This document shows, one piece after another, positions 4,068-34,015 of a stretch of DNA of 64,000 bases. Where the stretch lies: NCBI GenBank assembly GCA_009103225.1, contig RHPI01001037.1, positions 372,001 to 436,000 of the forward strand, given 5' to 3'. The position numbers and the translations under genes are program-made. Within the stretch, counting starts at the first letter, position 1, and each line of letters begins with the position of its first letter. The DNA is from Chlorokybus atmophyticus (taxonomy: Eukaryota > Plantae > Mesostigma and Chlorokybus algae). The notes below the pieces were generated by a model. That model had not been told where the DNA came from, made no database searches, and worked only from the letters and a program-made list of their open reading frames with translations.

Positions 4068-7000
4068 CTAATCATGCGTGCGCCGATCAATGACAGCCCT
4101 GGCAAGGATCTGCATCAGTCCCCCGTGCTGCTCCCTCGACAATCCGGACACGTCTGGTGCCGCGGTCGGGTGCACGCTGCTGGAGTTCAGTCCATAGCCT
4201 GCACTGCCACTCGGGGCTGCAGGCCGCATCCTGAAATTAGTTGAGCGAATGCGCTGTAGCAATTCACCTGTTGCACAAACGACAGTTCGGTCAGGGGACA
4301 GAACTCGGCTGGCTCATTCAGTGTCTGGTGTTGCTAGAAAGTTGTCCACAGGCGTATCATGACATGTTCATGCATGGTCTGCGTACCTTGCTGCTCAGAG
4401 CCTGTTGAGTCCCCTCGGTGTGGTTTGGTCGCGTTGGGTGAGGCAGCACTGGGTGCGTGCTGGGGTGCAGGTTGCGCTGGTGCGATGTCATGCAGAAGGA
4501 CTTCATCCGAATCATTTGACGTTGTCACTGGCATCTGCGACACGCTCACACTCCCTCGCAGAACCGTCTTTTCCAACCATCTCAGGGACATCTCATCAAC
4601 CTCATCGGGAGAAAGGTTGGTCTTGTCACCATCCCGACCTGGCCCATTCTCAGTTGACACCTCTTCTCCAATGGAATGAATGGAGTCATCTACAGACTCA
4701 TCTCTGTAGTCCGGATGCCACGGCGGCACTGGCGCAGATACCTTCTTCTTTTTGCCACTTGAGGCCGGCTCAGCACGACTGCTTTTTGTTGCCGATCCCG
4801 GTGCGGGTGAGGCAAACATGTCCTTGGAGCCCTTGTCCTTGTGTTTAGAAGAGTCCAATGGAGTCTGCGGCCCCGAGAGAGACGGCGTTGGACTCATCTC
4901 TCCAGACTCGCTGACCGGACTCTTCACGGGCTCGCAGTAGCGCGACACGTGCTGGTTGGACCCCCTCGGAGGCACGGCTATGACGGGCACCTGAAAGGGG
5001 GATCCATCCGACGTGATGCTGCTGCGCTTGCCCTTGTCCTGATCCACACCTCTTTGTGCAGGCAGCTCTGCGGTGAGTGGTTGCGTGTATTTGTGGGGCT
5101 TGTGAGAGCTGTCTGGGTTGGGTACGCTTGAAGCCGAGTCTGTTCGGCTGCTTCTGCGCGAGGTGACGGGCGTGCTGTTGGCACTGCTGGCCTGACTGGC
5201 ATTGGCATTGGCATGGGCGCGATGTTGGTGTTCGCTGTCATCGTCTGCTGCCAGCAGCATCTGTACCACAAATGCGGCGTCCTTGGCCTCCAACGCTGGC
5301 GCGTTCATCTCTGCTAGCTTACTATCAAGTGAGGCCAGCAGAGACTGCCAGTCGGGAGGCAGGTCCTGCAGCTGCAACGCAACACATAGAGAGTTTGAGA
5401 CCTGGGCATGGCACTTGTGCATCCACAACACTACCACGTAATAAATTGTAGCCAAGCCCATATCACATCGATGTTGATGCAAAGATGACGAGGTAAGAGG
5501 TGCAAGAGCAGTAGTGTCACGAAACAGCAATGTGTGAGGTTGTGGCACCAACCTCAAACTGAGCATTGCCCGATGACGCATACACAAATGTTTTCGCCTC
5601 AGCATCCCAGCCGAAGTGTGCCTGTGGACAATGTGTCTCGGTCAATGACCCGCCACACGTGAATTTAAGAACAGCAACCCCTAGCTCTGACCCCTTTCAG
5701 CCTGTGCAACGTGACCCACCTCTTGCTTGACATTCATGGGCAAACTAACAACGTATCCCTCATGTTCTGCGCCATCAGCAAGGCTGGGCAACTCGCGGCT
5801 GATCTTGCGCCTGTCTGCTGAGGACACGACGAGCGGGGCGGATTTGCTGACATGCTGGTGGCCTTCAGCAAACAGTTGCGTGAGGGCTGCGTGATGCTGC
5901 GCATTGGCCGTAAGGATAGTCCTCGGGAATGTGAATTCCACACTTTTGACCGCATGACTCAATTGAGAAACACTCTCCTCATACTTGGCCTTGGCAGCTT
6001 CAAGGTGTGGGATGACCTGTTGGAGCCAAACACATCACAACCGGTGCTGTTATTGGAACTACTGCGGCCAGTTAATGATTGTCACCTCATCGATGCCATC
6101 CGTCGAGTTCTTCTTCGATTTCTCTCGCATTCTGGATCGCCACATGTCATAACGTTGCCTGCCATGGAAACAAGCTTGTTGCTTCAAGGTACTTTAACAC
6201 GCTTACATTGCATGACGCTTGTCAACATGGCAAATTTTGTCATTGGCGTTAAGCGTCTCTTGCACAGCACAGGTATGTACCTCTTGTCATCATAGCGGCG
6301 CTTGAGAGCTTCCACGTCTTCAACATCCTGCATGAAGTTCTTGCAAGGGCTGCAGATGGTCCTTGTCACGTAAGCACTCTGTCACAGATTGCCTGCCTCA
6401 ATATCATGGCCAAAACCACCAGGTCAAGTGCTGACACACGCACATGACCGCCACTTACATAGTCATCAGTTAGGCGAGCCAACTCTTGTTGCATGTGTAC
6501 CAGGTTCTTGATAACAGCTGCTGCATCAGCAAAATCAGCAAATGTTAGCCAGATGCTTTGAACCAAAGCCTCTGCTTGTATAATGTGCGACACTTGCACT
6601 TCAGCAAGCGGCCCCCTTCATAGGTTTAGCATCAATGCACACGGCACCAATGCAGTCGTTAGCACTGCTTGCAAGAACTCACCAACATCATGATCACCAG
6701 AATGAGCAAAGTTAGCCATCAGGTAGGTTGCCATATCGCGCCAGGACTCAGCCATCTCTGCCAAGTAGCAACACAAAGGTCAACCAGGTTTATTGACTAC
6801 AACGCTTTCTAATAGTGTATGCTCGCTGCACACGAGAGGAACAAGAGCTGCAATGTGTTGAACAGCACCGCTTACTTGTAGCTCGCTTCCTTGTGCGGCT
6901 TGCAACCCTCACCAATCCGTCACTTTGTTTGTTCATATGCCTTACATTCTGTGCACAACTTACAAATTCAGTCGTGCTTTAGCTGGGCTGTGCGCTCAAA

Positions 7001-7683
7001 ACGGTAGTTAAGCTTAATGAGGGACAATGCAACGGCAAGGTGACGTGAACGCAGCTGGCCATTCAGGTAGGCCGTTCTTGCTAGCACACTGGTGCGTAAC
7101 TTCGCCTTACACATATCATCCGCCGCCGTATACCATGTACACATTCAGGGATGTCCATGCCGCATGCACACTACAGTGCAGGGCAGCCACCTCATGTGCA
7201 TGCCACGCACTGATTTGCTAAATTACTTTCTTCAAGCAGATCTAGTCTTCTGTTGACAGGACAGCTGTAGAGAGCATCAGCTCTCATGGCTTCAGCCAAC
7301 GTTCTTGTGCTCTGTGCGAGGGTGGTGACACCCCCAAGCAACGTGACACAAGCGTCGCCAGCCAGCGCACCGAGAAGTCTCTGACATTTAGTTAATTGTG
7401 TGTGTCGTGTACAGACAAGCGCAGCAAGCCAGCACCTGCATGCGGTGGTGGAAGTCTTCCAAGTCCTCCATCCGCTCCGCCGTGCCCAGGCGCTCGCCAA
7501 TGCGCTGCTTGGTCAACCCGGTGAAGTTGCGGAAGCTCTTCATCTTGCCGCCGTATACAGTGCCCTTCACAAGCGCTCTGGTCCGACTCACCTCACCTCA
7601 CCTCACCTCACGGCGTCCAGCTCCTCCTCGTTGTCGCCTCCGCCACCGCCACCGCCGGCGACCCCTTCAACGCCGTCAAGCAT
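4068..7683 (-). CDS. BAR-domain protein (endophilin/amphiphysin-like N-terminus) with a long Ser/Pro-rich disordered C-terminus; multi-exon, both ends uncertain
   Basis: Exons encode MKSFRNFTGLTKQRIGERLGTAERMEDLEDFHHRMQ, ICSPCKNFMQDVEDVEALKRRYDDKR and LKAAKAKYEESVSQLSHAVKSVEFTFPRTILTANAQHHAALTQLFAEG. These resemble BAR helices 1-3. A large S/P-rich exon lies within ORF 4334..5605. Confidence 0.55.
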
Positions 7684-8218
7684 GCTGCCGCTCACTGCCA
7701 GCAGCCAGCAGCAAGCTGCCTGCGCACGGGGCCCAGAGAACGATCCCGATCCCCCGCAGTGCTTTCGGGCTCTCTCGATACGGTTCCTAACGGTCCGATT
7801 GCTAGAAAGTGCGCTGTAATTCCCGCGCGGATTGCGGGTCTTACAGTTGCAGCCGGATTTGCCGGCGAAGCGAGTTAGGTGACCGGGGTTGAGACCGGAG
7901 GAATGGGCACGCGCCAGCATGAGAGCAGGTGGGGTGATGCCCGCCTGCGACTATTGCGCTAAGGCTGCAGTGCGCGGTCGTGACACACTGGCTCACGTGA
8001 CCGTTTGCTCGCTCCCGGTTGCCAACGACACGTGTCGCCGTCAGCCTGCGTGCGTCACGTGCTGCAATGCTGACGTCTAATGCACTACTACTAGGCGGCC
8101 TAGTCTAGGCCTACTACCCTGTAGGCCCTTTGGCCACTGCACAACTACTGACTGAAATTTCAAGTACCAGGTACATGAATCGAAAACCTTCCCTTCTTAA
8201 CCTTTTGTCACCGGAATA

Positions 8219-8423
8219 CAGTAGAGACACTTACATTACAACCCACACTCGCTTTAGCGAACATATAACGAACATATTATTTTTCAACTCAACCTTTCAC
8301 TATCATGACCACAAAAGCAAATGCATTGATAGCATGGTTGATAAGGCCTGTAATACCTTAACAAAGTTATAACCCAAGGCATGTAGTAATTATTTTTGGG
8401 CTGTAATGTATGTGTCTCTACGG
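8219..8423. mobile_element. 205-bp Tc1/mariner-type MITE
   Basis: About 29-bp terminal inverted repeats (CAGTAGAGACACTTACATTACAACCC vs reverse complement CCGTAGAGACACATACATTACAGCCC). TA flanks both sides (8217-8218 and 8424-8425). No ORF. Confidence 0.7.
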
Positions 8424-9120
8424 TAGCTCCTGAATTGAGAGTCTTGAATAGCCACGACAACGGATGATTGACACAGTTGCCCCAACATGGAACTGTAAAA
8501 TAGCCTGCATTGATATTGTCGACAACAGCGACACAAGTGATTTGTATTATTATGTACACATAGATAGCATATACACATAGATAGCATATACACATGTGCA
8601 CACGTGCACGTACAAATATATACAGTTAGATGTCGNNNNNNNNNNNNNNNNNNNNNNNNNNNNNNNNNNNNGGGGGGGGCCCGAAAGAAATAATGGAAAA
8701 GTATGTGACCAACGCTGTTTATAAATGCACCTATACATGAATGAATGTATAGTTGCATGACCCTCTACAGCAAAATTGCGAAAGTGTTAAACAATATTAT
8801 TTATTTAAGCATACGATGGTTACGAGTGTGATTGCATTGCATTTAATCATTTCCTCACAAATGAAATGTTACACCATTCAATAATCTAGCCGCAACTATT
8901 ATAATTATTTGATTTTTTTTTTCTTTTAGAGAACGATCGTTGCTAGTGTCTTAAGAGCGATAAAATGAATGGGATCCTACAATAATCTAACTGGGAAAAT
9001 GTGTAATGGTATTTACTCATCAAAGCATGCATTTAAAATCATGTTACATGGCACAATTTATTAATGCTTGTATAATATAATTTTCACATGCCAACTTGTT
9101 AATGCATATTGTAAAAGCAT

Positions 9121-9371
9121 TGTAAGAGTTGAATCTGTCGGGTCGAAGGGAGTCGAGGGTCACGCTGTCTCGGACAGCTGCATGGACAACCATGCTTGCT
9201 GGACATGCTGCTGCGCCAGCTGCGTAACGCGCAGCAAAAACAAAAGATGACCCCACCCCTCATGGTGACAAGTGCTCTGTGCAGCTGGTCTGCTGCTGCT
9301 GGGTAGTACGGGCAGGTGGAGTCGGTGTTCTCCCTAGTGTACATGCTGTGCTGTAGCACACAAAGTCAACA
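9121..9371 (-). repeat. Putative 3' LTR (251 bp, TGTTGA...CTTACA on the minus strand)
   Basis: Begins with TG immediately after the purine tract AGGGGGGGTGGCT (minus strand, 9372-9384) and ends in CA. I found no full-length matching 5' copy in the window. Confidence 0.45.
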
Positions 9372-9421
9372 AGCCACCCCCCCTGGGCTCTAGGGGAGGT
9401 TCCAGCTCCAGAGCTCAGCTG

Positions 9422-9793
9422 CTAGCGCAAGTGAGGAGGGCCGTTGGTACGGCAATCGTCGCACCAATACTCCTCCATAGGTATCGCGTCCAAAGGTGGC
9501 TCCAAACAGTAGCAATGCAGGCCCTTGTTGCAGCCATCGCAGAGCATCATGAGTGCGTCGTCACCGGCGCTGCCGCAGCGTTCACAGCGTGTGCTGCGCG
9601 CGGGACGAGGGTGCTGGATACGCCCGAAGCCGGCTACGTAAGGAAGGTGACATGGCGCACAGTTCACCATGTTGTCCTTCAACCTCTCTCCGTTTTGACC
9701 AAGGAGGTCCAGCACCCCTGTGGGGTACACTTTGAGTACCTTGTAGACGGTGCGGCCTACAGAGGTGTCAAGCGTGTCTTTGGTGGCTGCCAT
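9422..9793 (-). pseudogene. Integrase C-terminal module plus C4HC3 PHD finger (retrotransposon)
   Basis: CERCGSAGDDALMMLCDGCNKGLHCYCLEPPLDAIPMEEYWCDDC is a canonical PHD. Restoring one G in the G-run at ~9810 joins it to the integrase ORF (RRFQAGDFAYRMAATKD). Confidence 0.9.
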
Positions 9794-12771
9794 GCGATAG
9801 GCAAAGTCCCCGCTTGGAACCGCCGTTGGCGCTCCTTGTAGAAGCCGCTGCGTACGCGCTCGTAGCGCAGCGTGTCGCGATGCTGCGCGATGCGCAGGTT
9901 GTTGAAGGCCATGGGGACGGTGCGCTCGAAAAGCGCGGCGCGCGTGGTGATGTCGTGGTGCATCCAGTCAGGGTTGTCGAGGTTGTTCACGACGCGATCC
10001 ACCTCCTGCTGCGCACGGAAGGGGAGCAATGGTGGTCGCTCGAACAGCAGGTAGTACGGGCTGTACTCCCGCAGAGCCGCCTGCTTTGACAATCGATATC
10101 CGAGGGCCACCCACGGGAGGTGGTCATCCCAAGTGTTCTTCTCGTACTCCAGCACGTACTTGCGGAGTGCCTTCTTGATGGTCTGCACTGCACGCTCGGC
10201 GAGACCGTCGGCTTGAGGGTGATCACGCGAGGTATGGCGGTGGTCGATGTAACATTTGTCCAAGAGGATGTCAAATTCCCCTTTGAACTCAGTACCTTGG
10301 TCAGTGATGACCTCGGCACAGCTGCCAAATCGGCTGACAACGTGAGAGAGGAAGGCTTGAGACACCCCCCTGCTGCTCTTATCGGGTAACGGTACCAGCT
10401 CCACCCATTTGGAGAAGTGCTCGATCATGACCAGGATGTAACGGTTGCCACGTGCTGAGGGTGCCAAGTCCCTCAAGATGTCGAGCCCCCATCGGTAAAA
10501 GAGACCGGAGATGGGGAGTGGGTGCAAGGTGGCGCTACGCGTGTTTAGGCTGGCGCGCACCATGTCACACTGCTGGCAGTGGCTGAAGAACCCCTGCACC
10601 TGTTTTGTTAACCCATACCACCAATATTGTGCCCGCACTAGGCTAACTGTACGCTTGACACCGAAGTGTCCAAGCTCAGTGTGGAGGGAAGTGATGATGC
10701 CCTCGCGCGTGACCGGTGTCGGCACTTCCTTGTCTTCGTCGTGGAAGCGGCGATACAGCTTGTCACCTGCCCATCGATAGTGACGGGTGCGTTGGTTGAC
10801 TCGGTCCTTCTCTCGGGCGCTCATGCCGGAGGGAAGCTGGCCACTTTGAAGAAAGGAGAGTGATGGCTTGTCCTGCCATATGTCCTGCCTGGTGTCAGTG
10901 GGCGCCAGCTCTGTGTTATCGACGTCAATGTCGGCTGCGTGGGCGTCTCCCAAGGGTGTGGTTGCCGCAGGGCCGGTAGGCTCAAGGGCAGGAATTTCCT
11001 CTGCCACTGCTGAGGCCGTGGTGTTGGTCTTGCGCCCTGAGCGCAACGCGGCAGCAGCAAACATGGCTGCCATGGTGGGGGCTGTTGCTGCAGGGACGAG
11101 CTCATGCCGAGCTCCAGTTGCGTCGTTGGTGCTGAGGTGAGGGTTGCGACTGAGGCCATCGGCGTCTTGGTTGGTGAGGCCAGCGCGGTGGTCGATCTCG
11201 AAGTCATATTTCTGCAACAGCAGGGCCCATCGAGCAAGTTTCCCTGTCAGATGTTGGTTGGTCATCAGCCACTTGAGGGGCTGATGATCGGTGATCAGTT
11301 GGAACTGTCGACCAAAGAGGAAAGGTCGGAAGAAGGAGATGGCCCACACTGCAGCGAGGCACTCCCCTTCGTAGCTGCTGTAGTTGGCCTCGGCGCTGTT
11401 GTTGCTTCGGCTGGCGTATGACACCACCCGCTCCTTCTTGTTCTCATCGTGCTGCACCAGCACCGCTCCCATCCCCAGCTTGCTCCAGTCGGTGTGAAGG
11501 ATGAAAGGCTTGGCGTAGTCCGGACGACGTTGAAGGATGGGAGCGGTGGTGAGCCTGCTCTTCAGCTCCTCGAAGGCCTGCTGTTGCGGCTTCTTCCATG
11601 TGAACTCCACCTCCTTCTTCAGTAGCTCGTTGAGGGGCCTTGCGATCTTCGCGAAGTCCTTCACGAACCGGCGATAGTAGTTGGCAAGTCCCAAGAAAGC
11701 GCGCAGACGTGTGAGGTCTGTCGGGGCAGGGATAGCTGCCAGAGCCTCTACTTTTGCCTGCTGCACATACACACCATGGGGCACAATCATGTGTCTTAAG
11801 TACGGCACCTTGTGGGTGAAGAAGGTACACTTGTCGGGGTGTACGGTCATCCCCACTCCCTTGAGTCGTTCCAGCACCGCTTCGATGTGCTGAAGATGCT
11901 CCTCGTTGCTGCAGCTGAAGATGAGGATGTCATCGATGTAGCAACGCGCGCAGTCCAGCCCCTTCAAGGCCTTGTCCATGACGCGTTGAAACTTGGGGGG
12001 GGCATTTTTCAGCCCGAACGGCATTACCTTCCATTGGTACAACTGTCGGTTGCCCCAGAAGGAGGTCTTGTGCTTGTCCTCGTCCTTGATGGCGATTTGG
12101 TTGTACCCTTTACGCATGTCCAGGATGCTGAAGATTGTGCAGTCTCCCACATCATCAAAGATACCCTCGGCTGTGGGCATGGGGTACCTGTCTTGCTTGG
12201 TATTGTTGTTGAGGGGGCGGTAGTCGCCACACATGCATCGCTCTGTCCAGTTGCCTGCTGAATCCTTCTTCAGTGGCATGACGGTTGCTGCTGCGAAGTC
12301 CGATGTGGACTCTTCAATAAGGCCTGCATCAAGCAGCGCCTTACATCTCTGTTCCACCAGGTCCTCTTCCAACTTGGAGAGCCTGTATTGCCGCCCGAAC
12401 ACCGGTTCTGTGTCCACCAGCTCGATGTCCATCTGGTACACTGAACATGTACCCAATTCCTTCACATTGAAGCTGAATTGGCTCCTCCACTTGTTGAGGA
12501 GAGCCTCCAGCTTCTCTCGAGTGTCTTTTGTGGCCAACGGGCCAATGGCATGGTCCCAGGAGGTTGCATTGGCAACCACGGGAATGTCCTCCACCGTCAC
12601 TGCTGCTTGCTCCTCCATGTGGACCACCTCGAGGGCTGTGTGAGCTGCCTTGGTGTCGGCAACGCGATCAGCCCACCCCCCAGCCAAGTGTGCGAGATCC
12701 TCGAAGGACACGTGGCGGTCCTGCAATACAAAGCTCAGCTGCAGCAGCCATACCATGCTGTTCTGGTCCAT
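9757..12771 (-). pseudogene. Reverse transcriptase - RNase H - integrase (Gypsy pol)
   Basis: RT: MCGDYRPLN, LDMRKGYNQI, MPFGLKNAP, CYIDDILIF. RNase H: HTDWSKLGMGAVL, YEGECLAAVWA, ITDHQPLKWL. Integrase: HTELGH...CQQC, WGLDI, TDQGTEF, GLAERAVQTIK. Confidence 0.97.
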
Positions 12772-13699
12772 GGCGCGGCCAAGCAGCTGGCATTGCTGAC
12801 TATCATAGATGATCTGTCAGCGATGAGCCCGTGATGCTGTTGGGGAAGAATCCCATGGCGCGTTCACGTTCGCGTGCGTTGGGTTCCTCCAGCCTGTTGG
12901 TGGTCGCATCAAACACCATCCCGTCTCCACCGTTTCGAAATGCGTAGGAGCCCGGGTAGGACACCAATGTGGGGAGTGCGCGACGGGGCTGACCGGGCTG
13001 ATTGCACGGGTAGAAGTGGTTGTGGTCATGTCGGAGGACAGGTTGTGCTTTGCGGCCGGGGTCAAGGATGTCATCGACCAATAGGTTGCGCGGCCGAGCG
13101 CTGCGCGTGTAGTTTGCGGTAATGAGTTCCTCCACGGTGGCCAAGTTTGTCCACTTGGCGCGTACACAATGTGCGCGCGAGCCATGTCGTGCCGCGTTCA
13201 CCTTGAGTGGGTGCCCCAGAATGGAGCAAACTTGTCGGTAGCTGGAGGACACGTGCGGACGCTTGTCGTCCTCTGAATGCACATTTTCGATGACGTACCC
13301 CAGGGGTCTGGAGATCTAGTGGTGTTGAAGAAGGTGGATGATTCTCATGAGCTCCCAAAACAGCCCTGAGCGAGGGTGTTCGAGGCCTTGCCCCTTGCCT
13401 GCCCTGGAGTGCCCTTGGCATTCCCACCCAGCTATTAATAGGTCGACGTTGCCGATGGACAGTAGGTGATCTTCGGTGATTAGCCGGATGTCTTGTGGCA
13501 ATGCTTTAAGGCTGCCTTGCAACGCCGAGAGGGGTAGCTGATGTGAATACCTTTCGTGCAGTTGGCGTAGGTGGTGCTTGAGGACCGTTTGCGCGTGTGG
13601 GTCTGGGTCGCAGTAATAGTATTTGACAACCTTCACACCCGTGTTGAGGACCGCGGCAAGGCCGCTGCCAATGCCTCCAAACAGCTCCAACACTATGAT
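12745..13699 (-). pseudogene. C5 DNA cytosine methyltransferase domain within the retrotransposon polyprotein
   Basis: Motifs occur in canonical order: I VLELFGGIGSG, II/III YYYCDPD...DIRLI, IV LLIAGWECQGHSRAG (catalytic Cys present), VI YVIENV, VIII NAARHGSRAHCVR.KWTNL, IX ERERAMGF, X LLGRAMD. Interrupted by a TAG at 13316 and a frameshift near 12800. Confidence 0.92.
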
Positions 13700-14116
13700 G
13701 CCCTGTTGCCTGCGAAAGGTGTAGAACTCCACCACTCCGGTGGCCACCATATGGTGGTCCTGCACCTTGTTACGGCTTCGGTAGTTGGGGAAGCGCGTGG
13801 TGATCAGTGGATGGCTGAGCAAGACGTGTGCGTCTATCTGTGCGCGCCAGCGCCGTTCAGCTGGGTCTTGCAATGCTACTTCCACGGTGGCATCCTCCTG
13901 CTCCTCGTTGTACGGGGTGGGAAAGGAGTCAACAATTCGACACGGGGCCGTGGCACCAGCAGCGACTTGCGTCCGAGTGCCGTCGTATGTGGCCGTTGCA
14001 GCCTCCCGTGTGCGGGCGTGGCTGCGTGTGGCCACGGCAGCCACTTTGCGCGGGGCGCGCGTGCGCGAGACCAACTCGAGAGGCAGGAAACCCTGCACCT
14101 CTCCGTCATCCTCATC

Positions 14117-14581
14117 TCAATGTGGCCGAAACCGCGCCTGCTCTGTCCAGCAGTCGAGGCCTATGCCCACAGGGAAGTTGAAGTCCTGCCCAAGCAGAAA
14201 GTCGAAGGAGCCGGCATTGGTGACTACACATTGCTGGACGATCTCGGTTGTGTGGGTGGGGTCCAGCCCTGTCAACCGAATGCAGAAGGCCTCCCTGGTG
14301 ACTCCCATCACCTTATCTCGGCTATCTGTGGCAGTGTCCAACACGTACGGGCAAGGCACCAAGTCGGAGCTGGTTATGCCGAGGGACCGCGCGAGGAAGC
14401 GCCCGATGATGACAGGCTGTGCTCCGGTGTTCAACATCACTCGCTTGGGTGCCAGACCGTTAATGGTAACGTGCTTGCATTGGTTGGCCACCATGGCAGC
14501 ATTGGCGTTGATGCGCAGCCTCTTCATACGAGCTGTCTGCACCTTTGCCTCATTTCTCTCAGCAGAGGGTGCTGAGCGCAT
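14117..14581 (-). pseudogene. Retroviral-type aspartic protease (catalytic D replaced by N)
   Basis: KRVMLNTGAQPVIIG (normally LDTGA) and FDFLLGQDF. In frame with the downstream DNMT ORF across a single TGA. Confidence 0.85.
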
Positions 14582-16420
14582 GGCAGCCAGAGCTTCTTTG
14601 CCTACTGGGTCCGGAGAACCCCCTCCTTGCCCTCTCCCTCTGCCGAACCGACCTTGTCATGGTGGTTGGTAGACACGGGGGGGCCTCGGTGCTGGAGGTT
14701 CCGGCGCCGATTGTGGTGGCGGCGCAGATGGATGCTGCCTCTGCGAAGACGGAATCATGCCCGCGGGTGTACCCAATGGCTGTGGAGGAAACCCCGGAGG
14801 ACGCGGCGCTTGTGGGCCTGCCTCGCGTTCAGCTTGCTCCGCGGCGTACGTCCATCGGCCAGCATGAGCCGCTTCTCTAACCAACGTCCCTTCCCACGTG
14901 GCCGTGGGCTCGGTGTCCGTGTCGGTCCAATGATGATATTGAGGCATGGGCTGCATGTGTACGGCGCGTAGTAGCTGTCGCCGCATGTCGTGAGTGATGG
15001 TGGGGACTTGCAAGATCCCTGCCATGTAGGCATCCCACCTTCCTTGTACCACTCCCACATTGAGCATAGTCATGGCTCGCGCGCGTAGGGTGCGCTGGAG
15101 GTCAGTCTGCTGTGCGTGTAGCTCATGAGCAATGGCGATGCGCCGCCGTTGTCGTGCGGCTTCCACCCCTGGCAGCCGCAGCATTGCCTCTTGCACTCCC
15201 TCCAACGTGTCCGGGGCTGTGGTGGCAGCCTCGTCGTATGCTTGTCGCAGCGAACGAACAAATGCCCCCAACCATGATGCGCGGTTGTCAAAGGCAAACA
15301 GAGGGACAGCAGGGTGATTGGCAACGAGCCATGTCACGAGACGGGCTCGAGCGGCGTTGCCCTCTCGCATCCCCATCATCTGTCTTAATGTGTTGCCCTC
15401 AGGCCTGTGCAACATGACTGCTTGCCGGATGAGTGCGGTACGGAGTTGTTGCTCCCCCACCATACCAGCTCCTCCTCGTTGTGCGGTATTCCCTTGCGGG
15501 GTGAGGTACCCTCGCCCTGCATCGCGTTGATCCTTAGGCATGTCTTCGACCAAAGGAGGCAGCAGCGGGGCGATTACCCCCCTCAATTGTTGCGCCAACG
15601 CCCTCGCTTGGTCTGCAACAGTTGCTTGTCTTGGCTGTTTGTTCGATGGCGACTGCCGTGGAGTACCCTGTGGTCAGCGCCGTGGAGGCGCTGGCAACAT
15701 TTGCCGGAGCTACGGTTGGTACGATAACGGCGTGTGCTGCTTCGTACGCCTGTCGGCGCGCGTTCACTTGGGCAGCTTGGTCCACCTGATAACGATGTGC
15801 CTGTTCGAGGGCAGAGAACCGCTCTTGACGGCTGCTTGGAGTGAGCCCTCGGAGAGCGGGATCAGTGCCCAGCGCGATGTCCGACATGGTGACCACGAGG
15901 TCTTGTATTTTGTGGCGCTGGAGTCCGAGTGGGTCCAGTGGTGAGGGTTCGAAGTCGATTTGTTGAGCGGGCATGAGTTGGTGCATTGGACTGGGTGCGC
16001 CTTGCAATCATGCGTGTAATGCCAAGAACAACTGAATGGCCAGCTCTAATACTGCAGGTCGCCGGTAGGTGACCCCGAAGAGATGATCCCTCATCTGTGG
16101 TGCAGTGCCGGCGAGGATTTCATCCTCCAGCTGCTGTTGTGTGGGTTCCGGCAGCGTATGGTACTCTAGAGGTGGTAGGGGCAAGATGCGATCATCGCGT
16201 GCCACGCGCGTGGTGCGTTGCCCCCCTGGTTCGTACGCAATGGTGGTGGGCTCCACGTGGCGTAGAACCGACGCCTAGGCGCGTTCTGCTTGTGGTCCAC
16301 GTGGCACTTGCTGTGTGACGTCAAGTGCTGGTGGCGGTGCCGTTCGAATCTCAGGAACTGGTGCAGTGGGTGTGGCAGCACTACTTAAGGCGACGATGGT
16401 GGCACCGGCAGCAGTCGTTG

Positions 16421-18387
16421 TTACTGAGGTGGCGGCTGTGAGGGTGGCAGCAGTTGCGATGTGGTCGCGTCAATGGAGGCAGGAGTGGTGGATTCACCAT
16501 CCACGAACCCAACGACCATGGTTGTTGCGGCGTGGGTGCTTTCCATCACCGGGGACAGCGTGGTGCCAAGAGTGCTGGCACCTGCTGTCGTGGTCGGTGT
16601 GGACGCCGACGGTGTCGTCGACGGCGTCATCCCAGCAGCGGTTGTGGCTGCCGAGGCAGCACCACTTATGGCGTCCGACGATGCCGCTGTTGACGACGCG
16701 CCAGCTTCCCTGCGCGCACGTCTTGATGGTTGTACGCGTGACGGCGTGAGAGTGTCCCTATCCCGTTTTGATGCCATCAGTGCCCACCTAGCAGCATAGC
16801 AGGCTTGATAGTCCTGCTCCTTGTTCTCCTCCAGCTGAGCCACGCGCGCCATCAGGGCTGCCACTTGGTCAATAGCTGGTGGATTGGTTGGTGCCTGTAC
16901 AGCAGCAGCTCCAGCGCGAGGACGTCCCTCAAGTCCTTTGTGCTGTGGAGGGCGGTTTTTCCCTCTGTAGCCAGCTTCTTCCTTGCGGGCCCCGGCGTTG
17001 TTGTTGTTGCTGGGGTTGTGGCCACCAGCGTTGTTGCCATTGTTGCGACCACCAGCGTTGTTGCTGTTGTTGTAGCCCCCGTTGTCGTTGTTGTTGTGGT
17101 GGTGGTGGTGGTGGTGGTTGCCGCGGTAGCCAACAGCGTTGTTGCCGTTGTTGTAGCCAATAGAGGGCCGCAGCTCAGGGAACTTGAGCCAGCATACTGT
17201 CTCCAAGTGTCCCGTCTTGTGGCAGTAGTCGCACACAAGGCTGCCGTAATCTTCGGTGCACTCTTTTTGGTACCATGACCATGTCGACCACACCGGTGGC
17301 ACAGCACTGGAGCCACAAGGGCAGCATGAGCCGATCGTTTATCCTTGTTGTGGATGCCTTGAGGCTCTCGGCTGCGGTCCCGCCGAAGAGGCTCTGCACT
17401 TGTGCCTGCCATAGGCCGCGAGGCACTGCGGTTGGTGTCCAGCACCGCTTTCTCATACACTGCGCGCTTATGGATGGCTTGTGCAGTCTCGAAAGCTTCC
17501 TTGAGGGTGTAGCCGAGGGGCCTGCTGTAGTTCAGCGTCAGGCGCGTTGACTCACTCAGGGTGGGATCCAACTCGGCCACATACACCACTGCTGCCGCCT
17601 CCTCGCTGACGATCTTGTGATCAGTGTCTTTAAGCAACCCTTCCAACCGTGAATACAGTCGGTGAGGGTCTTCGTTGGGCTTCCGTCGAAAACGCCTCAA
17701 CTCCTCCACCTTGTTGTTGGTTTGAGGTGGGAAGGTGCGCCGGAGTGCGGCGTAGAGGTCCTTCAATGGGGAGTCCGACATGGCCGCGCCCACCGTGAGC
17801 GCGGGTGCACGCAATGCCACTGAGCCGAGGGTGAAAACACTGCCTCCTGCTGGGGCACGCGAGTTCGGTGTTGGTAGCAGGGGCGTACCCATCTCCAATG
17901 CTGCAGCTTGCTGCTCCTCTTGTTGCTCCCTAATGATGGCAGCGGTGCGATTGAGTATCCTGATCCGGCGCTCGGCCTTCTTGCTTTCGATCTCTGCAGG
18001 AGTCAATGAGGCCACTACCACCTCAACTTCTTCATTCTCTGCCTTCTCCATGGCTGCCGCTAGAGTGAGATTCGTGACTGAGGCTGGCGGGGCCGCTGCT
18101 GCAGGGACAGTAACCGATGGGCTATGCAGTAACGTGGAGGATATTGTGCTGGCCAATTCGCCATAGCCATCAATCTTGTGCAACTCAGCGACGGACTTCC
18201 ACACATTATGTGCTTCGTGATCAAGGTATTGAGCGGACACATGAAACGATACCTCATCTGTCCAGTCCTTGCTCTTGAGGGCTTGCTGCCGCATCTTGGA
18301 GTGGAACTTGATGATGAACTCATCAAGTGAGGTGGTGCCAGGGCGTCCGGAGAAGCGTAGGGAGTTGGTTGAGCCGGAAGGCTCCAT
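16421..18387 (-). pseudogene. Gag with two CCHC zinc knuckles
   Basis: N-terminal FSGRPGTTSLDEF and LRRFRRKPNEDPHRLYSRL capsid-like segments. Knuckles CHRCGRHGH(GTKE)C, frameshifted in an A-run at ~17267, and CDYCHKTGHLETVC. Confidence 0.85.
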
Positions 18388-21263
18388 CTCCTCGTCGTTA
18401 CTGTCCGACGGTGGTGGAGATGCTCGTTGTCGAGGATTGGAGTGAGGGGAGGTGAAGCCGGAGACGGGGCGTGAGCCTCTGCTGCTACGGTAATCGCTCC
18501 CTTCACTTGCGCGCTCGTAGGTAAGGTTGGAGGTTGGGCTCCAGCTGTTGAGGTTCCCTTCTTCTATTGGCGAGAAAGGGGTGGGCCTGCTAATACAGCT
18601 GATGCGATGGTGAAAGTGGATGAAGGGTAGAGTGTTTGTGCTCTACAATGGGATCTCCAGTGCTGCTAGCACCCACCACACTAGCGCTTGTGCGCGCTAT
18701 GCGATGACGGTGACAACAATGCACTGCGATGTGTACAACTACAGATTGCGATGCTGATGTGCAGCCTGCAGCTTCACTCACTTGAGCAAAGAGGGTGACA
18801 CTGTAAGTCAACAAGCCACTACTATAGGTAGCGCTGTTTACACAGTTCTTTGCATGAGTGGAAGAGAAATTACACTGTTAAGTGAGGTGAATGAGCAAGC
18901 AACACGTGGATGCTATGCCCTGACTGATGCCCAAGAGCACCCCGCGACCAAGTACACCAAGCTCACAACAAGGACAAACACAGTGCACAAGAACATGCAC
19001 AGGCTCTCACACGGTGAGGGGATTCTGGGGAACCGGGACGGCGTGTTTCGTAGTTCAAGTCGCTTCATAAGCTCTTAGCTTTCTCACTTACAGTGTCGCC
19101 AGCTGATCCGGTGAACACTGTGCCTACTTATACAAGTCAACTCATGACTATTCAGAACATAAGCTAACGGTCATATCAAGGCTATTTCCACAGAAAATCC
19201 CCACTCGATATAGAACCCAACTTATAACTGAACTCACAACTGACCAGCTACGCGAGGTGCCTATGTAGGCTATGGTCATGAGCTACTCTAGAGACATGAC
19301 CTAGCTACTGGTCAGTGACGCGTGCGGGTTGCCATGCTGGTAAGCCGGGCGAGGGTCTCGCTGTAGGCATGCCAGATGACGACTGGCATGCCCGGGCGAT
19401 AGGCATGACAAATCTCTTGAATGCAGGATTTAAGTAATAACCCGTCACCCTCATGATTGGGCGACGTGTAATTCAGCCTTATGATTGATTGGCGACACAT
19501 ATTGACCTGATCAATGGGTTGGTTGTGTGTGATATGCATGCCTGAAAGCTTGCCATAAAGGCTTTCGTGCGGCAATTGTGCCGTGTGCATATTCATAAAA
19601 AGGGCGAAGCAAACCAGTCAGTACATGTGAGCAAGGATGGAGGGTGGGATACATATGTGCTGCAAGTACATCGTTTCAACGTCTGTAAATCAACATAAGA
19701 AGACAACAAGGCACTTCAAAAGACAATTCCGTTTACGCAAAGTTCAACATTGTGCAATAAAGCTATGTGATGTCTGATACTTTTGAAAACTCTAAAACAC
19801 ATGCAAACACAATGATGTACATATGAATTACTGTAATGAGCCTGTTGGGGGAGCCACTAGGGTAGGCAACGGCGGCTCACACATGCATGCCATGGCAAGC
19901 TTGCTGTGCTGGTCTAGCATAGCAAGCTTCATCAGATAACTTATGGTAGCAGGGGGCGCAATGCGTTATGATCTCTATAACGGTGTGCTACCTCCATAGA
20001 GGTTCCCCGCCCTTACTTAGGATTAAATAAGGGTCCCTACGGAATTATACAGCCTATTAAGCCATATTAGGGCCGTTAACCTATGTTAAGGCCCTCATGT
20101 AGTGTTACTTATCTGTAACACTGATATCGACATGAGACATGAGTCTCATGTCGAACTCAGCCCCATGGCGACGCTGCTAACACAGCGACCGCAATAGACA
20201 GGGGATCTTCTGCTTCGGCAGTTGCCCAAAGCGGCGGCGGCGTGGGCGGCGTGGCTGGTGGTGGTGTTGGGGTAGGGGATTTAAGGGAGGAGGGAGCACC
20301 CCCTCTCCTTACAGTCTCCCTGCCACCATAGGCTGCATATATCACCAAGCAACATGATGATATGGAAGTATGTCGTGTCACCTCCTAGGTACAGATGGCC
20401 GGGTTAAAGGCTAGAGCGCAAACATGTGCGTAACAAGATGCTAACTTGCATCGCTTCTGTGGAGCAAGCTGTTGCCATCATTGAAGATACCCTCACTATC
20501 GGTCATGGCGGCCAACGAGGTTTGGTACGACAATACCTGTCACCGTCCGCACAGCCACTGCACATTTGTCACCTCCCGGATACATGACATACTTAAATAT
20601 CACCGGGCAATTGATCATGGCAGGGGGTAAAAAGCGCATTGAAAATTGCTTTACCAGATTGGTAAAACAAGAATTCTCAACATTATATAGAGCCCATCTA
20701 AAAACCCATTTTTGATGAGGATGACAGGTGTAGCTTAAATCTGTCATGCATAAAACGAATGAACATAGTCATGTCCGCTAGTGACCCTCATCGATATCAA
20801 TGTGCTCCGAGGCATGCATTTTTTTTCTCAATTCTCAATACACTGTTTGCAATCGCGCGGTTATGAGAAAAAACGGCATTCCCATTGAGTTAACGCAATA
20901 CATGACAATGAAAGTTCGGTCGTACATTGCATTAAGCATACGTTTAACAATGCGTGCATATTTTTAACGTACTCTTAGCAAAACACACTTAGCGTTTAAA
21001 TAAGCCTCCATGCTATTACGTTGTTAGCCACGGCATACTACACAAATTGATAACCGTACCTTATGAATATATTAATGCTCAACTTGCATGTGCATGTGCA
21101 TGTGCATGTGCATGTGCATATGTCATTACCATTCATGATCCGCTCTGATGATATTAAATTTCACCTTAAACCATTCTATTTTGCAATAAAATCAGAATAA
21201 CAACAACTTATCAACAAGCCTCTTATTGCATTGCTCTTGAGCAAATATTATTACATTGGAAAA

Positions 21264-21498
21264 ACGCATGGAAGTTTGCAAGCATTGGTTCAACTTGCCA
21301 GAGAAATAATCATTTACTAAAAATGACATGTGTAGTCTCAATTCGGAGTTTACAATTGGTGGCAAGCGCGTCGCACAATTCAATGAGTTGACTGTATTGA
21401 AACCAAGAAGGATATTGACACTTATCCGTCAATCTTCTATGCGGATGATCGTTCCTCCAATTTGCAAGTTGAGCCAATGCTTAAAAGCTTCCATGCGT
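21264..21498. repeat. ~36-bp imperfect inverted repeat pair (MITE-like, 235 bp)
   Basis: ACGCATGGAAGTTTGCAAGCATTGGTTCAACTTGC at 21264 matches the reverse complement of 21463-21498 (ACGCATGGAAGCTTTTAAGCATTGGCTCAACTTGC). No clear TSD. Confidence 0.5.
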
Positions 21499-22815
21499 GT
21501 GCATCTTTGCATTGCCTAAATGAGTCAAATGCTGTTTCAAGTTGTGCGTCAACATGCTTTGTGCTGCGTGGCATTAAACGCCCGTAACATTCAGTGCGTG
21601 AACATCTTGTGTTAAACCGAGACCTGACGCTATCGGTCTAACATAGCCTGCATTGTTTAAAATCTTTTTAAATTCGACTTGTACTTAAAAACTCGCTAAA
21701 TAATGTAATATCCCCTTGGATTCATATATCTGTAAGATGTATTTATATTCTTCATACCTTTCACGTAATGGGTTGATTTCAAGGTCATGACTTTAAGTCA
21801 TGAAGTTTTATCATAAAGTTTATAATTATACGCACGTTGAATGTGATATTTATTAATGTGGCAACAGTAGAGTGCGTCAGGATGTGCCCGCATAAGTACG
21901 CACACGTGCGTATGCATGATGTTGAATAGAGCGCGAGCACATGCATATCTTTTATACATGCATACGTATGCATTTAGTCCCCACGCATACGATATTCATA
22001 CACCCCTATTATACCCACATTGAATGTTAATGTAGTGCAGTGACCAGACTGCACCCCTTGATAAACACGCGTATATATGCGTATATATAATCGCGCATAC
22101 ATGGGTGCAATCCGGCATGATATTGGCCTAACCCCAATCCCAGAAGGCATAATCCCTTACGTCCAAATCTCGATGAGTTCCGCTGGTATACATGCAAAGA
22201 ATGCCGTTGCTGGTGGCGATGACTTATCTAATCACCGCCATTGTCAACGTCACGGCCGTCCTTGCCATCATAACTTCTAACTCTATCTCCTTGCATGCTT
22301 TTGCTGATTGTTTAACATGATCATCTCGGCTGTCGTATTATGTTGTTTGGCTAGGTATGTACCAAGCCCATGCACATGCTAACCAGCCCCGTAAACTTAT
22401 GCACATGTTGCTGCTAATTGCCGTTACGCGAGTGCTTTGCTGTGTATTTTGTGATGTTGCTTCGTGACCCCTCAATTCTACCATACGCCTGCAGCCTCAA
22501 TCCCTAGAAGTGGTGGCAGCCTACATGATGCCTGGCCCTATTGTGCAATTATCATACGCCTAAAGCCATCCCATATCATGCTATGTTCTGCCACATGTAA
22601 AAAGCTTGCATGCAGCCTCACGTGACCTGGCATTGGGCATGCATTATGCAGCTGGGTGCCGCGAACGTTAGCTCCACCCACACAGCGACATGATCCCGAA
22701 CTCAGCCGACGTGGCGCTCGCAACACAGACTCTCTGCTGCTGCGGCGGCGGCGGTGGCGGCGTTTTTCAAGTGCACAGCTGAGGGTAGCGGAGGATTGGA
22801 CAGTTCTGTTTAGTC

Positions 22816-24450
22816 ATGGCGCTGTCGTCGGGACAGAAGCCACTGTACGCCGTCGTGGGTGCCGGCGGCAAGACTGGCTCTCTCTGCGTGCAGGAGGCGC
22901 TCAGGCATGGTATGGACACTGGCAGGTCACTGCATGGAATAGTAACGTACTTGTCTTTACTGTGTGTCTTTGTGCTCATATACCTGAGGCTTTTGTCGTC
23001 CTCAAGCAGCAATCACCTTCCGCTTGTAGGGTACAGGGCAAGGGCGGTGGTGAGGGACCCGAGCAAGTATGCTGGCAAGTTCGAGCCGGATGCTGAGGTA
23101 AACCCGCTAAGTTGCAACGCACAAAGGCTAACCAGAACTCTAGTTCCCATTTCTGGACAGTATAATCCCCATTATGGAACTTCACCTATGTGTGGTTGGT
23201 GATGCATGTGCATGCAGGTTGTTGCTGGGGACGTCAAGTCGCCCGCCACACTCAGCCAAGCGCTGGACGGCGCCAAGGGCGTCATCTTTGCTGCTTCCGC
23301 CGCCTCATACTTTGACGCCTACAACGTGGACTACAAGTATGCCCCTCCCCCCCNNNNNNNNNNNNNNNNNNNNNNNNNNNNNNNNNNNNNNNNNNNNNNN
23401 NNNNNNNNNNNNNNNNNNNNNNNNNNNNNNNNNNNNNNNNNNNNNNNNNNNNNNNNNNNNNNNNNNNNNNNNNNNNNNNNNNNNNNNNNNNNNNNNNNNN
23501 NNNNNNNNNNNNNNNNNNNNNNNNNNNNNNNNNNNNNNNNNNNNNNNNNNNNNNNNNNNNNNNNNNNNNNNNNNNNNNNNNNNNNNNNNNNNNNNNNNNN
23601 NNNNNNNNNNNNNNNNNNNNNNNNNNNNNNNNNNNNNNNNNNNNNNNNNNNNNNNNNNNNNNNNNNNNNNNNNNNNNNNNNNNNNNNNNNNNNNNNNNNN
23701 NNNNNNNNCCCCCCCGCGCCGCGCATGTCACATGTGTGCGAGTTTGCCTGCTGAGTGTGTTGTGTCTCTATCAGGGGTTTAGAGGCCGTGGCGAATGCGG
23801 CAAAGGAGCGTGGGTTGGATCGTGTGGTGGTGGTGTCCTCCATGCTCGTGACGCCGAAGAACAGGTGGAACCCGATACGCCTTATTCTTAACAACGTCAA
23901 GTGGGGCCTCATGGACAACAAGTTCAGAGGTGCGTGCAAGCGTCTGAGAGCATGCTTAGCATGCAGTCATGCATGCACGTGCACACACATAATAGCCAAA
24001 GTATGTGTACGTGCATGGGCGCCCGCCCGCATAAATGCGTGCACACGCACACACACCTCTGTAACTTTGCATACAGGTGAAGAGGCATTGCGCAAGAGCG
24101 GCGTTCCATACACCATTGTCCGTCCCGGCGGCCTGTCTGATGATCCTCCAAAGGGCCTCGGAGCCGTGAAGGTAATCACTAGAAGACACCATAGCAACTC
24201 TCTTATACACACTCCAGGCCGCATCCCTGAAAATCTACTCCGCTCCACGCAGGTGCTACAGGGCGATACCGGCAGTGGTGGTGGGCGGATCTCCCGCGCG
24301 GATGTCGCAAAGGTGTGTGTGGAGGCGCTGGCGGAGCCCACCGCCAAGAACATCACGCTCGAAATCATGGGCAAGCCAGGTGTTCAGGAAGTCTCTGCTG
24401 CTGACATGGTAACGCCCAGTGCTTTCTTTAGCACGCTGGCGACGGATTGA
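22816..24450 (+). CDS. NAD(P)-binding Rossmann-fold protein (atypical SDR, NAD(P)H-binding/NmrA/TIC62-like), 6 exons
   Basis: YAVVGAGGKTG (GxxGxxG), AVVRDP, VVAGDV, VIFAAS, VVVVSS, EEALRKSGVPYTIVRPGGL and ISRADVA, with consistent GT/AG junctions. One intron contains an N gap. Confidence 0.9.
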
Positions 24451-33100: not shown

Positions 33101-34015
33101 GATGAGCTGTGAGTTTAAATTGTGCAAGCATCGCAGACAAACTAATCGTGTGACAAAGCAGCAATGTACACGTGAACACTAAGCTAACTAAATAACGACT
33201 TCACCTGTTTTGGACCAGGGAGCGCATTCGGACGCAACAATCACAATGTTCATGACATTGGGTCCGGCCAGGGGCTCCTTCTTCTCGGGAGCAGGTGGAG
33301 GTGCCGCCTGCGCGACGGGTGCAGGCGCTGGCGCAGGTGCGGGTGGTGGCGACACAATCTCCGCAGGCCGGGGCGCGGGTGGACGCCTTCTCCCTGTGGC
33401 CGGTGATGAAGATCTTGCATTGGTTGTGCTTGGTGTCGCCTGTGGTGGTGCTGTCTGGGGTTTGATAGGAGAAGAAGGAGGAGCGATGGTCTCCAGTGCA
33501 GAGGAGCGGGATCTTGACTGGACAGCTGTGGCCGTCCCTCGTGAAGAAGATGAGGTAGTGGAGGACTCTGAGGACGACACCTCCGCTTGCAGCTTGTCGA
33601 GGGAGTTCTGAGCGGTTTGAAGGCGGGCGGCGGAGGAGCCGACCAGATCGGAGGCGGCGTCGGCGGGGAGGCGCCCCTCGTTGATGGACTGCAGCAGCTC
33701 TGCATGCAGTCGCTTCCGCTCCTCTATCTGAAGCAGCAGCTCGCGCTGCATCTCCCACAGACGGCGGCTCTCCAACTTAAGGGCACTCTTCCCGTCCCCA
33801 CCACGCTCCTGTCCATCCCCACTCTCATCCCTGAACCTGGAGAAGGAGGACGAGGATCTGCTGGTGACCACAGTGGCTGGGCCAGCACTGCGCCCTCCTC
33901 CTCCGTGCCGCCCCCTCCCAGACCCCGGTCGCCTCTGCTCCGCCAGCAACGGCGCACCCCTTCGCAGCCCCTGCCACCCTCCAGCCGTCCACGCGGCCTC
34001 CGCCACCGTTACCAT
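30189..34015 (-). CDS. SS2: Soluble starch synthase II (GT5), plastid-targeted, multi-exon
   Basis: [25 protein letters not shown]|[73 protein letters not shown], and the SSII-type terminus [12 protein letters not shown]. Confidence 0.95.

Follow-up and report, generated by a model that had tools for sequence, protein, structure and literature searches.

The concept of a Gypsy retrotransposon that carries a DNA methyltransferase (DNMT) has already been published, and the nearest described system is KnitGypsy-Dnmt3 of the charophyte Klebsormidium nitens (de Mendoza et al. 2018; PMC5890265). In the portion of that article on which we draw, this element has an intronless DNMT3-like domain within the Gypsy Pol frame, evolves under purifying selection and ends in DIRS-like split repeats of the form A-coding-B-A-B. 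The same article describes SymbioDIRS-Dnmt3 of Symbiodinium, which likewise combines a DNMT3 in Pol with split repeats and occurs in two domain orders within one element kind; its members are the only ones shown there to methylate CG (PMC5890265). EpiLTRs of Cymbomonas and Euglena, which are also Gypsy-like LTR elements, combine a cytosine DNMT with a chromatin reader; they differ in bearing a Dam domain together with a chromodomain, and in having a DNMT that is sister to DNMT4 and is called distinct from the streptophyte Gypsy-DNMT3 in the part of the preprint available (bioRxiv 10.64898/2026.05.21.726589).

The locus described here lies in a window of 64,000 nucleotides, the whole stretch of DNA that was analysed. 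A decayed Ty3/gypsy element occupies the minus strand from 19410 to 9136, with Pfam profiles and reading frames giving the order Gag, protease, DNMT, reverse transcriptase (RT), RNase H, integrase and PHD finger. The protease, RT, RNase H and DDE integrase follow the Ty3/gypsy set and order, and the best solved-structure relatives of a family Pol are the RT and RNase H of Ty3. The host is a streptophyte alga, as the starch synthase exon of the neighbouring gene is 100% identical to protein P0007 of jgi/Chlat1 (Streptophyta); we take Chlat1 to be Chlorokybus atmophyticus. Unlike SymbioDIRS-Dnmt3, which has a tyrosine recombinase (PMC5890265), the element has an rve domain, an integrase zinc finger and 4-bp target duplications, and unlike the EpiLTRs it has neither a Dam domain nor a chromodomain among the Pfam matches in its frames. 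It fits the Gypsy-DNMT3 kind known from Klebsormidium, and the first-pass annotation was correct in invoking de Mendoza et al. 2018 as precedent, which is a nearer match than was stated there, since the charophyte host and, in relatives, the split-repeat ends are shared as well; the differences are that the present host belongs to the Chlorokybophyceae and that this copy is dead and has the form A-coding-B only (PMC5890265). A non-standard code (TAG = Gln) was considered and rejected because a 1019-codon RT-integrase frame and the host exons are open in the standard code. Rfam gave no match.

The DNMT3-like C5 cytosine methyltransferase domain (12745..13699, minus strand) was delimited by Pfam, alignment, profile and fold. 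Pfam DNA_methylase matches its N-terminal half (E 1.9e-10, 41 bits, cut-off 22). The core C5-methyltransferase motifs lie between protease and RT, where the annotation had placed them: motif I (FGGIG) starts at 13681, the Cys of motif IV (GWECQ) is at 13420-13418, the ENV Glu at 13288, motif VIII at ~13180-13160, motif IX at ~12875-12855 and motif X (LLGRAMD) at 12786, in the RT frame. Stops aside, the domain shares the frame of the protease, and it is intronless. A stop codon at 13318-13316 and a frameshift before motif X (~12802-12812) are both present as first noted, but the damage goes further. In motif VIII, Cys (13168-13166) replaces the first residue of the RxR pair, which is Arg in 201/205 aligned rows; the protease has lost its catalytic Asp, further stops interrupt the polyprotein and the PHD finger is out of frame. 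With the stop, the frameshift and the Arg-to-Cys change, this copy has no single frame with intact motif I, motif IV Cys, motif VI Glu, motif VIII RxR and motif X, and its motif IV reads Glu-Cys where Pro-Cys was looked for.

The remaining parts, all on the minus strand, are likewise recognizable and decayed. Gag (17192..18642) was placed by frames and a weak Retrotrans_gag match (E 0.046, ~17763-17575), and ends, after a frameshift, in a zinc knuckle of the form CX2CX4HX4C (17233-17192). It is followed by a long low-complexity stretch (14657..17191), interrupted by several stops in the polyprotein frame, in which no Pfam family scored above cut-off and whose 338 residues at 14660-15673 had no Atlas match. 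The aspartyl protease (14180..14470, Pfam) has Asn for its catalytic Asp at 14431; the Asp is present in 26 of the 38 layout-A relatives with a protease match, the other 12 not being parsed. Stops occur at 14119, between protease and DNMT, and upstream (14659 and others). Pfam places the RT at 11797..12237 (YIDD at 11940), RNase H at 11206..11520 and the integrase, with HHCC zinc finger and DDE core, at 10216..10710. The PHD finger (9452..9586; Pfam, alignment) is in a frame other than that of the integrase, with a shift near 9810 in this copy, and lacks the Trp two residues before the His; that position is Gly, Ala or Pro, never Trp, in family PHDs (102 parsed of 115).

The element is one dead member of an algal Ty3/gypsy family present in multiple copies, and, judged from sequence, the Pol of this family includes a C5 methyltransferase of its own. 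The domain is DNMT3-like by profile and modelled fold. A profile of 32 family members scores DNMT3A at 95-102 bits and DNMT3B at 81-94, as against 46-59 for DRM, 38-47 for M.HhaI and 19-31 for DNMT2, the affinity being judged among families with solved structures. The structure model (pLDDT 91) has DNMT3A/B/C as all of its top structural matches (Z 23.1, rmsd 2.6 over 248 residues); a bacterial CpG enzyme reaches Z 19.8 and M.HhaI 18.7. No Klebsormidium-named DNMT was among the matches of the protein database searches.

Relatives occur in two layouts. The order of the window element (layout A) recurs in full in relative P0324, which together with the Pfam matches flanking the DNMT bears out the protease-DNMT-RT-RNase H-integrase-PHD arrangement first read from this copy, and protease, DNMT and RT share one open frame in 12/47 layout-A proteins, all 12 with GWEC. 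In layout B (151/274 proteins) the DNMT follows RNase H and directly precedes the integrase. A single change between layouts suffices in unrooted trees; when phage outgroups are included, layout B falls inside a non-monophyletic layout A, with weak support and long branches. The catalytic Cys and Glu are kept in 205/205 aligned rows. In relatives, purifying selection acts on the DNMT (dN/dS 0.04-0.35 in the 10/33 pairs with unsaturated dS; the 23 saturated pairs were left out), so that interpretation of the locus as a DNMT-bearing Gypsy element holds. Hosts of the family include Chlorokybus, Mesostigma, Closterium and chlorophytes (Scenedesmus, Chromochloris), and because of this spread the capture of the DNMT is suggested to be as old as the green-plant split, or to have been transferred between hosts.

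The ends of the element are unusual. The copy is flanked by a 4-bp target-site duplication, GATT on the sense strand (19411..19414 upstream and 9132..9135 downstream), a pattern found likewise in L005, L041, L043 and L049. Terminal repeat A (18805..19410, inner end approximate) starts with TGTCATGCC, a start common to L005, L007, L020 and L043, and was delimited by the joint of 19410 to 9135 in other copies and by raised contig depth. Terminal repeat B (9136..9376) ends in CGACA and is directly preceded by a polypurine-tract-like run of 7 G (9377..9383); a run of at least 6 G follows the PHD in 19/20 layout-A loci. Other copies of the family join B to A, with B followed by GC and a second A, and layout-A relatives (L005, L007, L020, L043, L063) show A-coding-B-A-B split repeats; the window copy is A-coding-B, as are L041 and L049. 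The B-to-A joint would imply split repeats in other copies of this family too, although among the joints listed none ran from A to B. No direct repeat pair of at least 40 bases flanks the element, and the end of A shares no more than a 15-base match with the beginning of B.

No tRNA-type primer site was seen. A TATA-like box (TATAAG, 19127..19132), promoter-like by sequence, lies ~35 bases before the first arm of a 12-bp inverted repeat, which would pair the predicted transcript 5' end (19086..19097), as self-primer, with a predicted primer-binding site at the inner end of A (18797..18808). Tf1 and sushi likewise pair their RNA 5' end within the 5' region, but these are chromoviruses with ordinary paired LTRs, as far as the parts of the sources used describe them (PMC7175516, PMC6317226). 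An equally long inverted repeat arose in 1/100 shuffles. Folding of the 5' RNA segment as a whole is no more stable than that of shuffled sequences (z -0.39), with the 12-bp helix in both structures; the hairpin was not seen in 4/9 copies of an AT-rich family (L033, L043, L049, L061) and is not significant in L014, L034 and L035. The CA-GC-TG junction and 4-bp target duplications of the family hint that integration starts from a circle. Layout-B loci have the junction motif less than 1.5 kb from the PHD in 5/21 cases, not above the control (3/21), and in several loci it lies farther out. The DDE integrase of foamy virus cleaves a palindromic 2-LTR junction to processed ends, as a circle model needs, but that junction is made from two cDNA ends, whereas here the palindrome is internal to a unit that starts at the polypurine run (PMC1180852, from the part consulted). 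Literature searches found no report of a self-priming hairpin in such elements, of a CA-GC-TG junction with 4-bp target duplications, of a second layout with the DNMT after RNase H, or of a host range for such elements that extends from Mesostigma to chlorophytes; the main text of de Mendoza et al. 2018, as far as it was accessible, mentions neither self-priming nor the junction palindrome nor the second layout (PMC5890265).

We infer that the cDNA is self-methylated, and lean somewhat towards the reading that the DNMT of intact members acts on freshly made cDNA of the element itself, methylating it before integration and probably at CG. Because Pol would be packaged with the RNA, the cDNA would be the first DNA that the DNMT encounters; reverse transcription would be self-primed, as in Tf1. 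Since the PHD finger on the integrase would read H3K4-unmethylated chromatin, a reading for which we take the missing Trp as the basis, a pre-methylated copy would land in silent DNA. Related DNMT3 domains of dinoflagellate retrotransposons methylated CG in yeast, according to the part of the article used here (PMC5890265). An active enzyme could instead act mainly on host DNA, either in and near the insertion site, which it would reach together with the integrase-PHD complex, or throughout host chromatin. This is rather unlikely: the DNMT directly ahead of the integrase in layout B could travel with it, and the window element has no extra CpG loss (observed/expected 0.79 over pol versus 0.75-0.78 in the surrounding host DNA), a point that also weighs against the cDNA reading, but RT and RNase H stand between the two in layout A, and modifying its own DNA is the simplest way for an element to answer selection. 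Relatives are CpG-poor (0.23-0.78, 80 loci), a poverty to which host methylation may contribute.

Motif IV bears on whether the enzyme is active. The WEC that the annotation remarked on in place of PC is indeed present, but it is not peculiar to this copy, being the commoner form across a large family (Glu before the Cys in 111 and Pro in 75 of 186 rows with either). The 80 phage enzymes retrieved with the same pattern all have PC and none EC, and literature searches on the motif IV proline found nothing. Loss of this near-universal Pro, the often weak Pfam scores of family DNMTs and the Klebsormidium domain, which gave no methylation in yeast (a result called inconclusive by its authors in the part of the article seen; PMC5890265), would suit a pseudo-enzyme, the E form or the whole family being retained to bind DNA or SAM, for example as a cytosine trap or to hold cDNA ends. 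We regard this as improbable, as the Cys, Glu and RxR are as strictly conserved in E as in P forms (RxR in 107/109 and 109/110 versus 75/75 and 73/75; motif X, whose pattern matched just 31/110 and 27/75 rows, was left out of the comparison), and the tree shows 15 interchanges between E and P, of which well-supported branches force at least 6. Glu before the catalytic Cys would be a tolerated loop variant, which is favoured over one-way loss because the two swap repeatedly. Chance nesting of a host DNMT gene or of a different element at this site is scarcely credible, even though in this copy a frameshift separates the DNMT from RT and a stop separates it from the protease, and among the contigs listed no single one bridges the whole DNMT to RT, because there are no introns, the contigs of other copies cover the DNMT as they cover the gag region, RT and DNMT trees agree (distances correlate with rho 0.57; best of 500 permutations 0.20) and relatives keep the domain in frame, in the same order, in open polyproteins (P0324, P0004, P0164, L001), which already refutes nesting.

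To our knowledge, the purpose of retrotransposon DNMTs has been an open question since 2018. The present copy belongs to a much wider family than the published concept, with unusual ends. This family supplies many naturally open DNMT domains in two forms (Glu-Cys and Pro-Cys) and at two positions in Pol, its named hosts include the culturable chlorophytes Scenedesmus and Chromochloris, and the replication model, with self-priming and a junction palindrome, is concrete. Tentatively, and with the balance against it, we propose an ancient green-plant Gypsy clade, in chlorophytes and streptophytes, that primes without tRNA and makes a circular cDNA methylated by its own DNMT3-like enzyme, the DDE integrase opening the circle at the internal CA-GC-TG palindrome with a 2-base staggered cut. 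If true, a two-repeat circle would give A-coding-B-A-B and a one-repeat circle A-coding-B, as in this copy; LTR elements would then have a third integration route, and there would be a shared reason for the recurrence of methyltransferases in split-repeat elements.

By Pfam, the decayed Ty3/gypsy copy on the minus strand (19410 to 9136) encodes a weak Gag, aspartyl protease, DNA_methylase (E 1.9e-10), RVT_1, RNase H, integrase zinc finger and core, and a PHD finger, in that order. Three-frame translation places motifs I, IV (GWECQ), VI (ENV), VIII and IX of the DNMT domain (12745..13699) in frame with the protease, and motif X in frame with RT, which bears out the position between protease and RT given in the first-pass annotation. 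The stop and the frameshift that it described in the domain are both present in this translation; however, they are not the sole damage. Motif VIII has Cys where 201 of 205 aligned rows have its first Arg, in a stretch that aligns to the RxR of DNMT3A when the family profile is compared with solved structures; the protease has Asn at its catalytic Asp, and further stops lie upstream. The window copy is dead. Because contigs of other copies have a different protease codon, and a different length where the frameshift lies, these two breaks look private to the window copy.

Contigs from three public sequencing runs were compared with positions 7000-22000 of the window. Two runs yielded 1336 and 648 contigs of 85-100% identity to the window; most of them fall on the element, and the flanks are almost uncovered. 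Against the concern that other copies might lack the DNMT, its bins are covered similarly to the gag bins. On this coverage the element belongs to a multi-copy family with a DNMT domain, contig depth not being equal to copy number. The surroundings are those of Chlorokybus, a streptophyte alga: one exon of a starch synthase gene (30189-34039, minus strand) is 100% identical to a jgi/Chlat1 protein, a label we take to be Chlorokybus atmophyticus, with Klebsormidium next best at 76%. Ordinary host genes encode a TPR/HAT-repeat protein (49506-50993, minus), a NAD(P)-binding Rossmann protein (22789-24450, plus) and a possible nucleotide-sugar transferase (56123-56869, plus).

A DNMT profile built from 32 family members and run against solved structures scored 95-102 bits with DNMT3A, 81-94 with DNMT3B/C, 46-59 with DRM, 38-47 with M.HhaI and 19-31 with DNMT2, DNMT1 being absent from the matches listed. 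The window DNMT, modelled with X at the stop and motif X missing, gave a predicted fold with pLDDT 91. Its best Foldseek matches were DNMT3A/B/C (E 2e-16), and structural alignment to these gave Z 23.1 and rmsd 2.6 over 248 residues; bacterial enzymes reached Z 19.8 and 18.7. By profile and predicted fold, the window DNMT is DNMT3-like, a likeness to solved structures and not a phylogenetic placement.

The N-terminal half of the DNMT matched 393 clusters (50%-identity representatives) at E 1e-10 or better. The domain is present in 274 of 285 gathered proteins, some of them cluster mates: 47 have layout A (DNMT before RT or after protease), 151 layout B (after RNase H or before integrase) and 76 are unassigned. 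Protease, DNMT and RT share a single frame in 12 layout-A proteins, all with GWEC, and P0324 has the entire domain order of the window element (48% identity over 299 residues). Together with the multiple copies, such single frames support the initial reading of a Gypsy retrotransposon carrying its own DNMT. Named layout-A or layout-unplaced members come from Mesostigma (P0003 cluster) and Closterium (P0143, P0144, P0158, P0209), and layout-B members from the chlorophytes Scenedesmus sp. PABB004 and jgi/Chrzof1, presumably Chromochloris (P0253 and P0373). The two layouts fall on opposite sides of one branch in unrooted FastTree trees of the DNMT (205 rows, each with 240 or more aligned positions; SH 96) and of RT (129 rows; SH 94), and distances for the DNMT are correlated with those for RT (rho 0.57). 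When 8 phage enzymes serve as the root of a 36-row tree, element DNMTs form one group (99), inside which layout B is nested within layout A with weak support. One DNMT capture followed by one move within Pol would be the simplest, though not a demonstrated, reading of these trees. A related DNMT with an AFPC motif occurs in P0146, P0279 and P0280; P0146 has a Dam domain and no RT match, and branches outside both layouts. Some layout-B polyproteins (P0182, P0335, P0340, P0391) have a G-patch domain.

The residue before the catalytic Cys is Glu in 111 of the 205 rows, Pro in 75 and another residue in 19. The tree requires 15 changes of this state, versus 58 in shuffles, at least 6 changes being forced by well-supported branches. 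Every row keeps the Cys and the ENV Glu, and the Glu and Pro forms retain RxR equally. Stop-free DNMTs were found in 27 of 80 metagenome loci; among 33 pairs at 55-98.5% identity, dN/dS was 0.04-0.35 in 10 and saturated in 23, the stop-free choice favouring constrained loci. Phage enzymes retrieved with the same pattern have PC in 80 of 80. The frequency of Glu, the equal retention of catalytic residues and the low dN/dS together argue that WEC is a family-wide variant under selection. A literature search on the motif IV proline found no paper.

No LTR pair was found in the window. The copy instead has one terminal repeat at each end, A (18805..19410) and B (9136..9376); it begins TGTC, terminates GACA and is flanked by a 4-base duplication on each side, and contigs of other copies connect position 9135 to 19410. 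Self-comparison of 32 loci showed A-coding-B-A-B in L005, L007, L020, L043 and L063, while seven further loci finish with B-A-B at their 3' end; all belong to a single AT-rich family. L041 and L049 have the A-coding-B form of the window copy. Where both ends are seen, duplications are perfect in five of six copies (window, L005, L041, L043, L049), L020 having one mismatch. B stands directly ahead of none of nine upstream A copies. In 19 of 20 layout-A loci a run of G stands before B, and a CA-(2 bases)-TG junction follows in 12 of 20 versus 0 of 20 in the control; exact GACA-GC-TGTC also occurs in L014, L027, L031, L050/52/53 and L056 (22 loci listed), mostly layout B. An inverted repeat has one arm 25-35 bases past a TATA-like box and the other downstream of the first; in copies with a defined inner end of A, the second arm sits at that end. 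The repeat measures 12 bp in the window (matched by 1 of 100 shuffles), 11-15 bp in five of nine AT-rich-family copies (0 of 100), 16 bp in L001 (0 of 60) and 12 bp in L050/52/53 (1-4 of 60), and its letters differ from family to family. Tf1, whose first 11 bases pair in this way, is described as self-priming (PMC7175516). An identical 15 bases ends A (18805-18819) and starts B (9363-9377) and could allow the cDNA to circularise by annealing of its two ends; AT-rich relatives have no comparably long A/B overlap. A second multi-copy repeat (19978-20300), perhaps a solo LTR from a different family, lies just upstream of repeat A and contains a 40-base palindrome (20121-20160); where this second repeat starts, contigs of one run carry on into a G-rich run, a pattern seen where an LTR begins.

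Reverse transcription from the G run with a self-primer would leave B-A at both cDNA ends; contrary to this, inserted copies begin at A and finish at B. If a circle were opened at the palindrome where B meets A, by strand cuts 2 bases apart that resemble processed integrase ends, both A-coding-B-A-B and A-coding-B would result, and foamy virus integrase is described as cutting a palindromic junction (PMC1180852). Against the circle, no locus showed A-B-A-coding-B, its mirror product, and recombination between the two B copies is another route to A-coding-B. The element's DNMT would, in the joint proposal, methylate the element's own cDNA. That substrate has roughly an even chance: it is favoured because the DNMT is made in Pol and kept by selection, and because DIRS-borne DNMT3 domains are described as methylating CG in yeast (PMC5890265), but CpG observed/expected (0.79 versus 0.75-0.78 in host surroundings) reveals no extra CpG loss and so lends no support. 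Circle and self-methylation taken together are rather doubtful. Stop-free layout-B loci L008, L034, L050 and L052 combine strong CG loss (0.29-0.47) with CHG excess (1.5-1.7), as expected under CG-only methylation. In PHD structures, a Trp two residues before His bears on H3K4me3 binding; its absence from all 102 PHD fingers parsed of 115 argues against such binding here.

A DNMT within a Gypsy element is a published concept, and the window copy belongs to a known kind. Klebsormidium Gypsy elements are described with Dnmt3 within Pol and DIRS-like repeats (de Mendoza 2018, PMC5890265); compared by text description, they may already show WEC. Hosts of Gypsy-DNMT3 are again given as 'streptophytes', beside a separate DNMT4-like capture, in the accessible text of later work (PMC12344493; bioRxiv 10.64898/2026.05.21.726589). 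The available parts of PMC6317226 present no PHD-bearing clade and report non-chromovirus Gypsy elements as not found in algae; those of PMC6947507 describe Mesostigma methylation as CG-dominated, with no such element. No publication on DNMT3 retrotransposons or gypsy elements in Chlorokybus or Mesostigma was found in a search outside which most subscription papers lie, nor, by title or abstract start in mostly non-subscription literature, anything on the window family. In this literature the family names appear in just two papers. With the breadth of the family, its Glu/Pro switching and its end structure, the question of what a retrotransposon does with a DNMT becomes testable.
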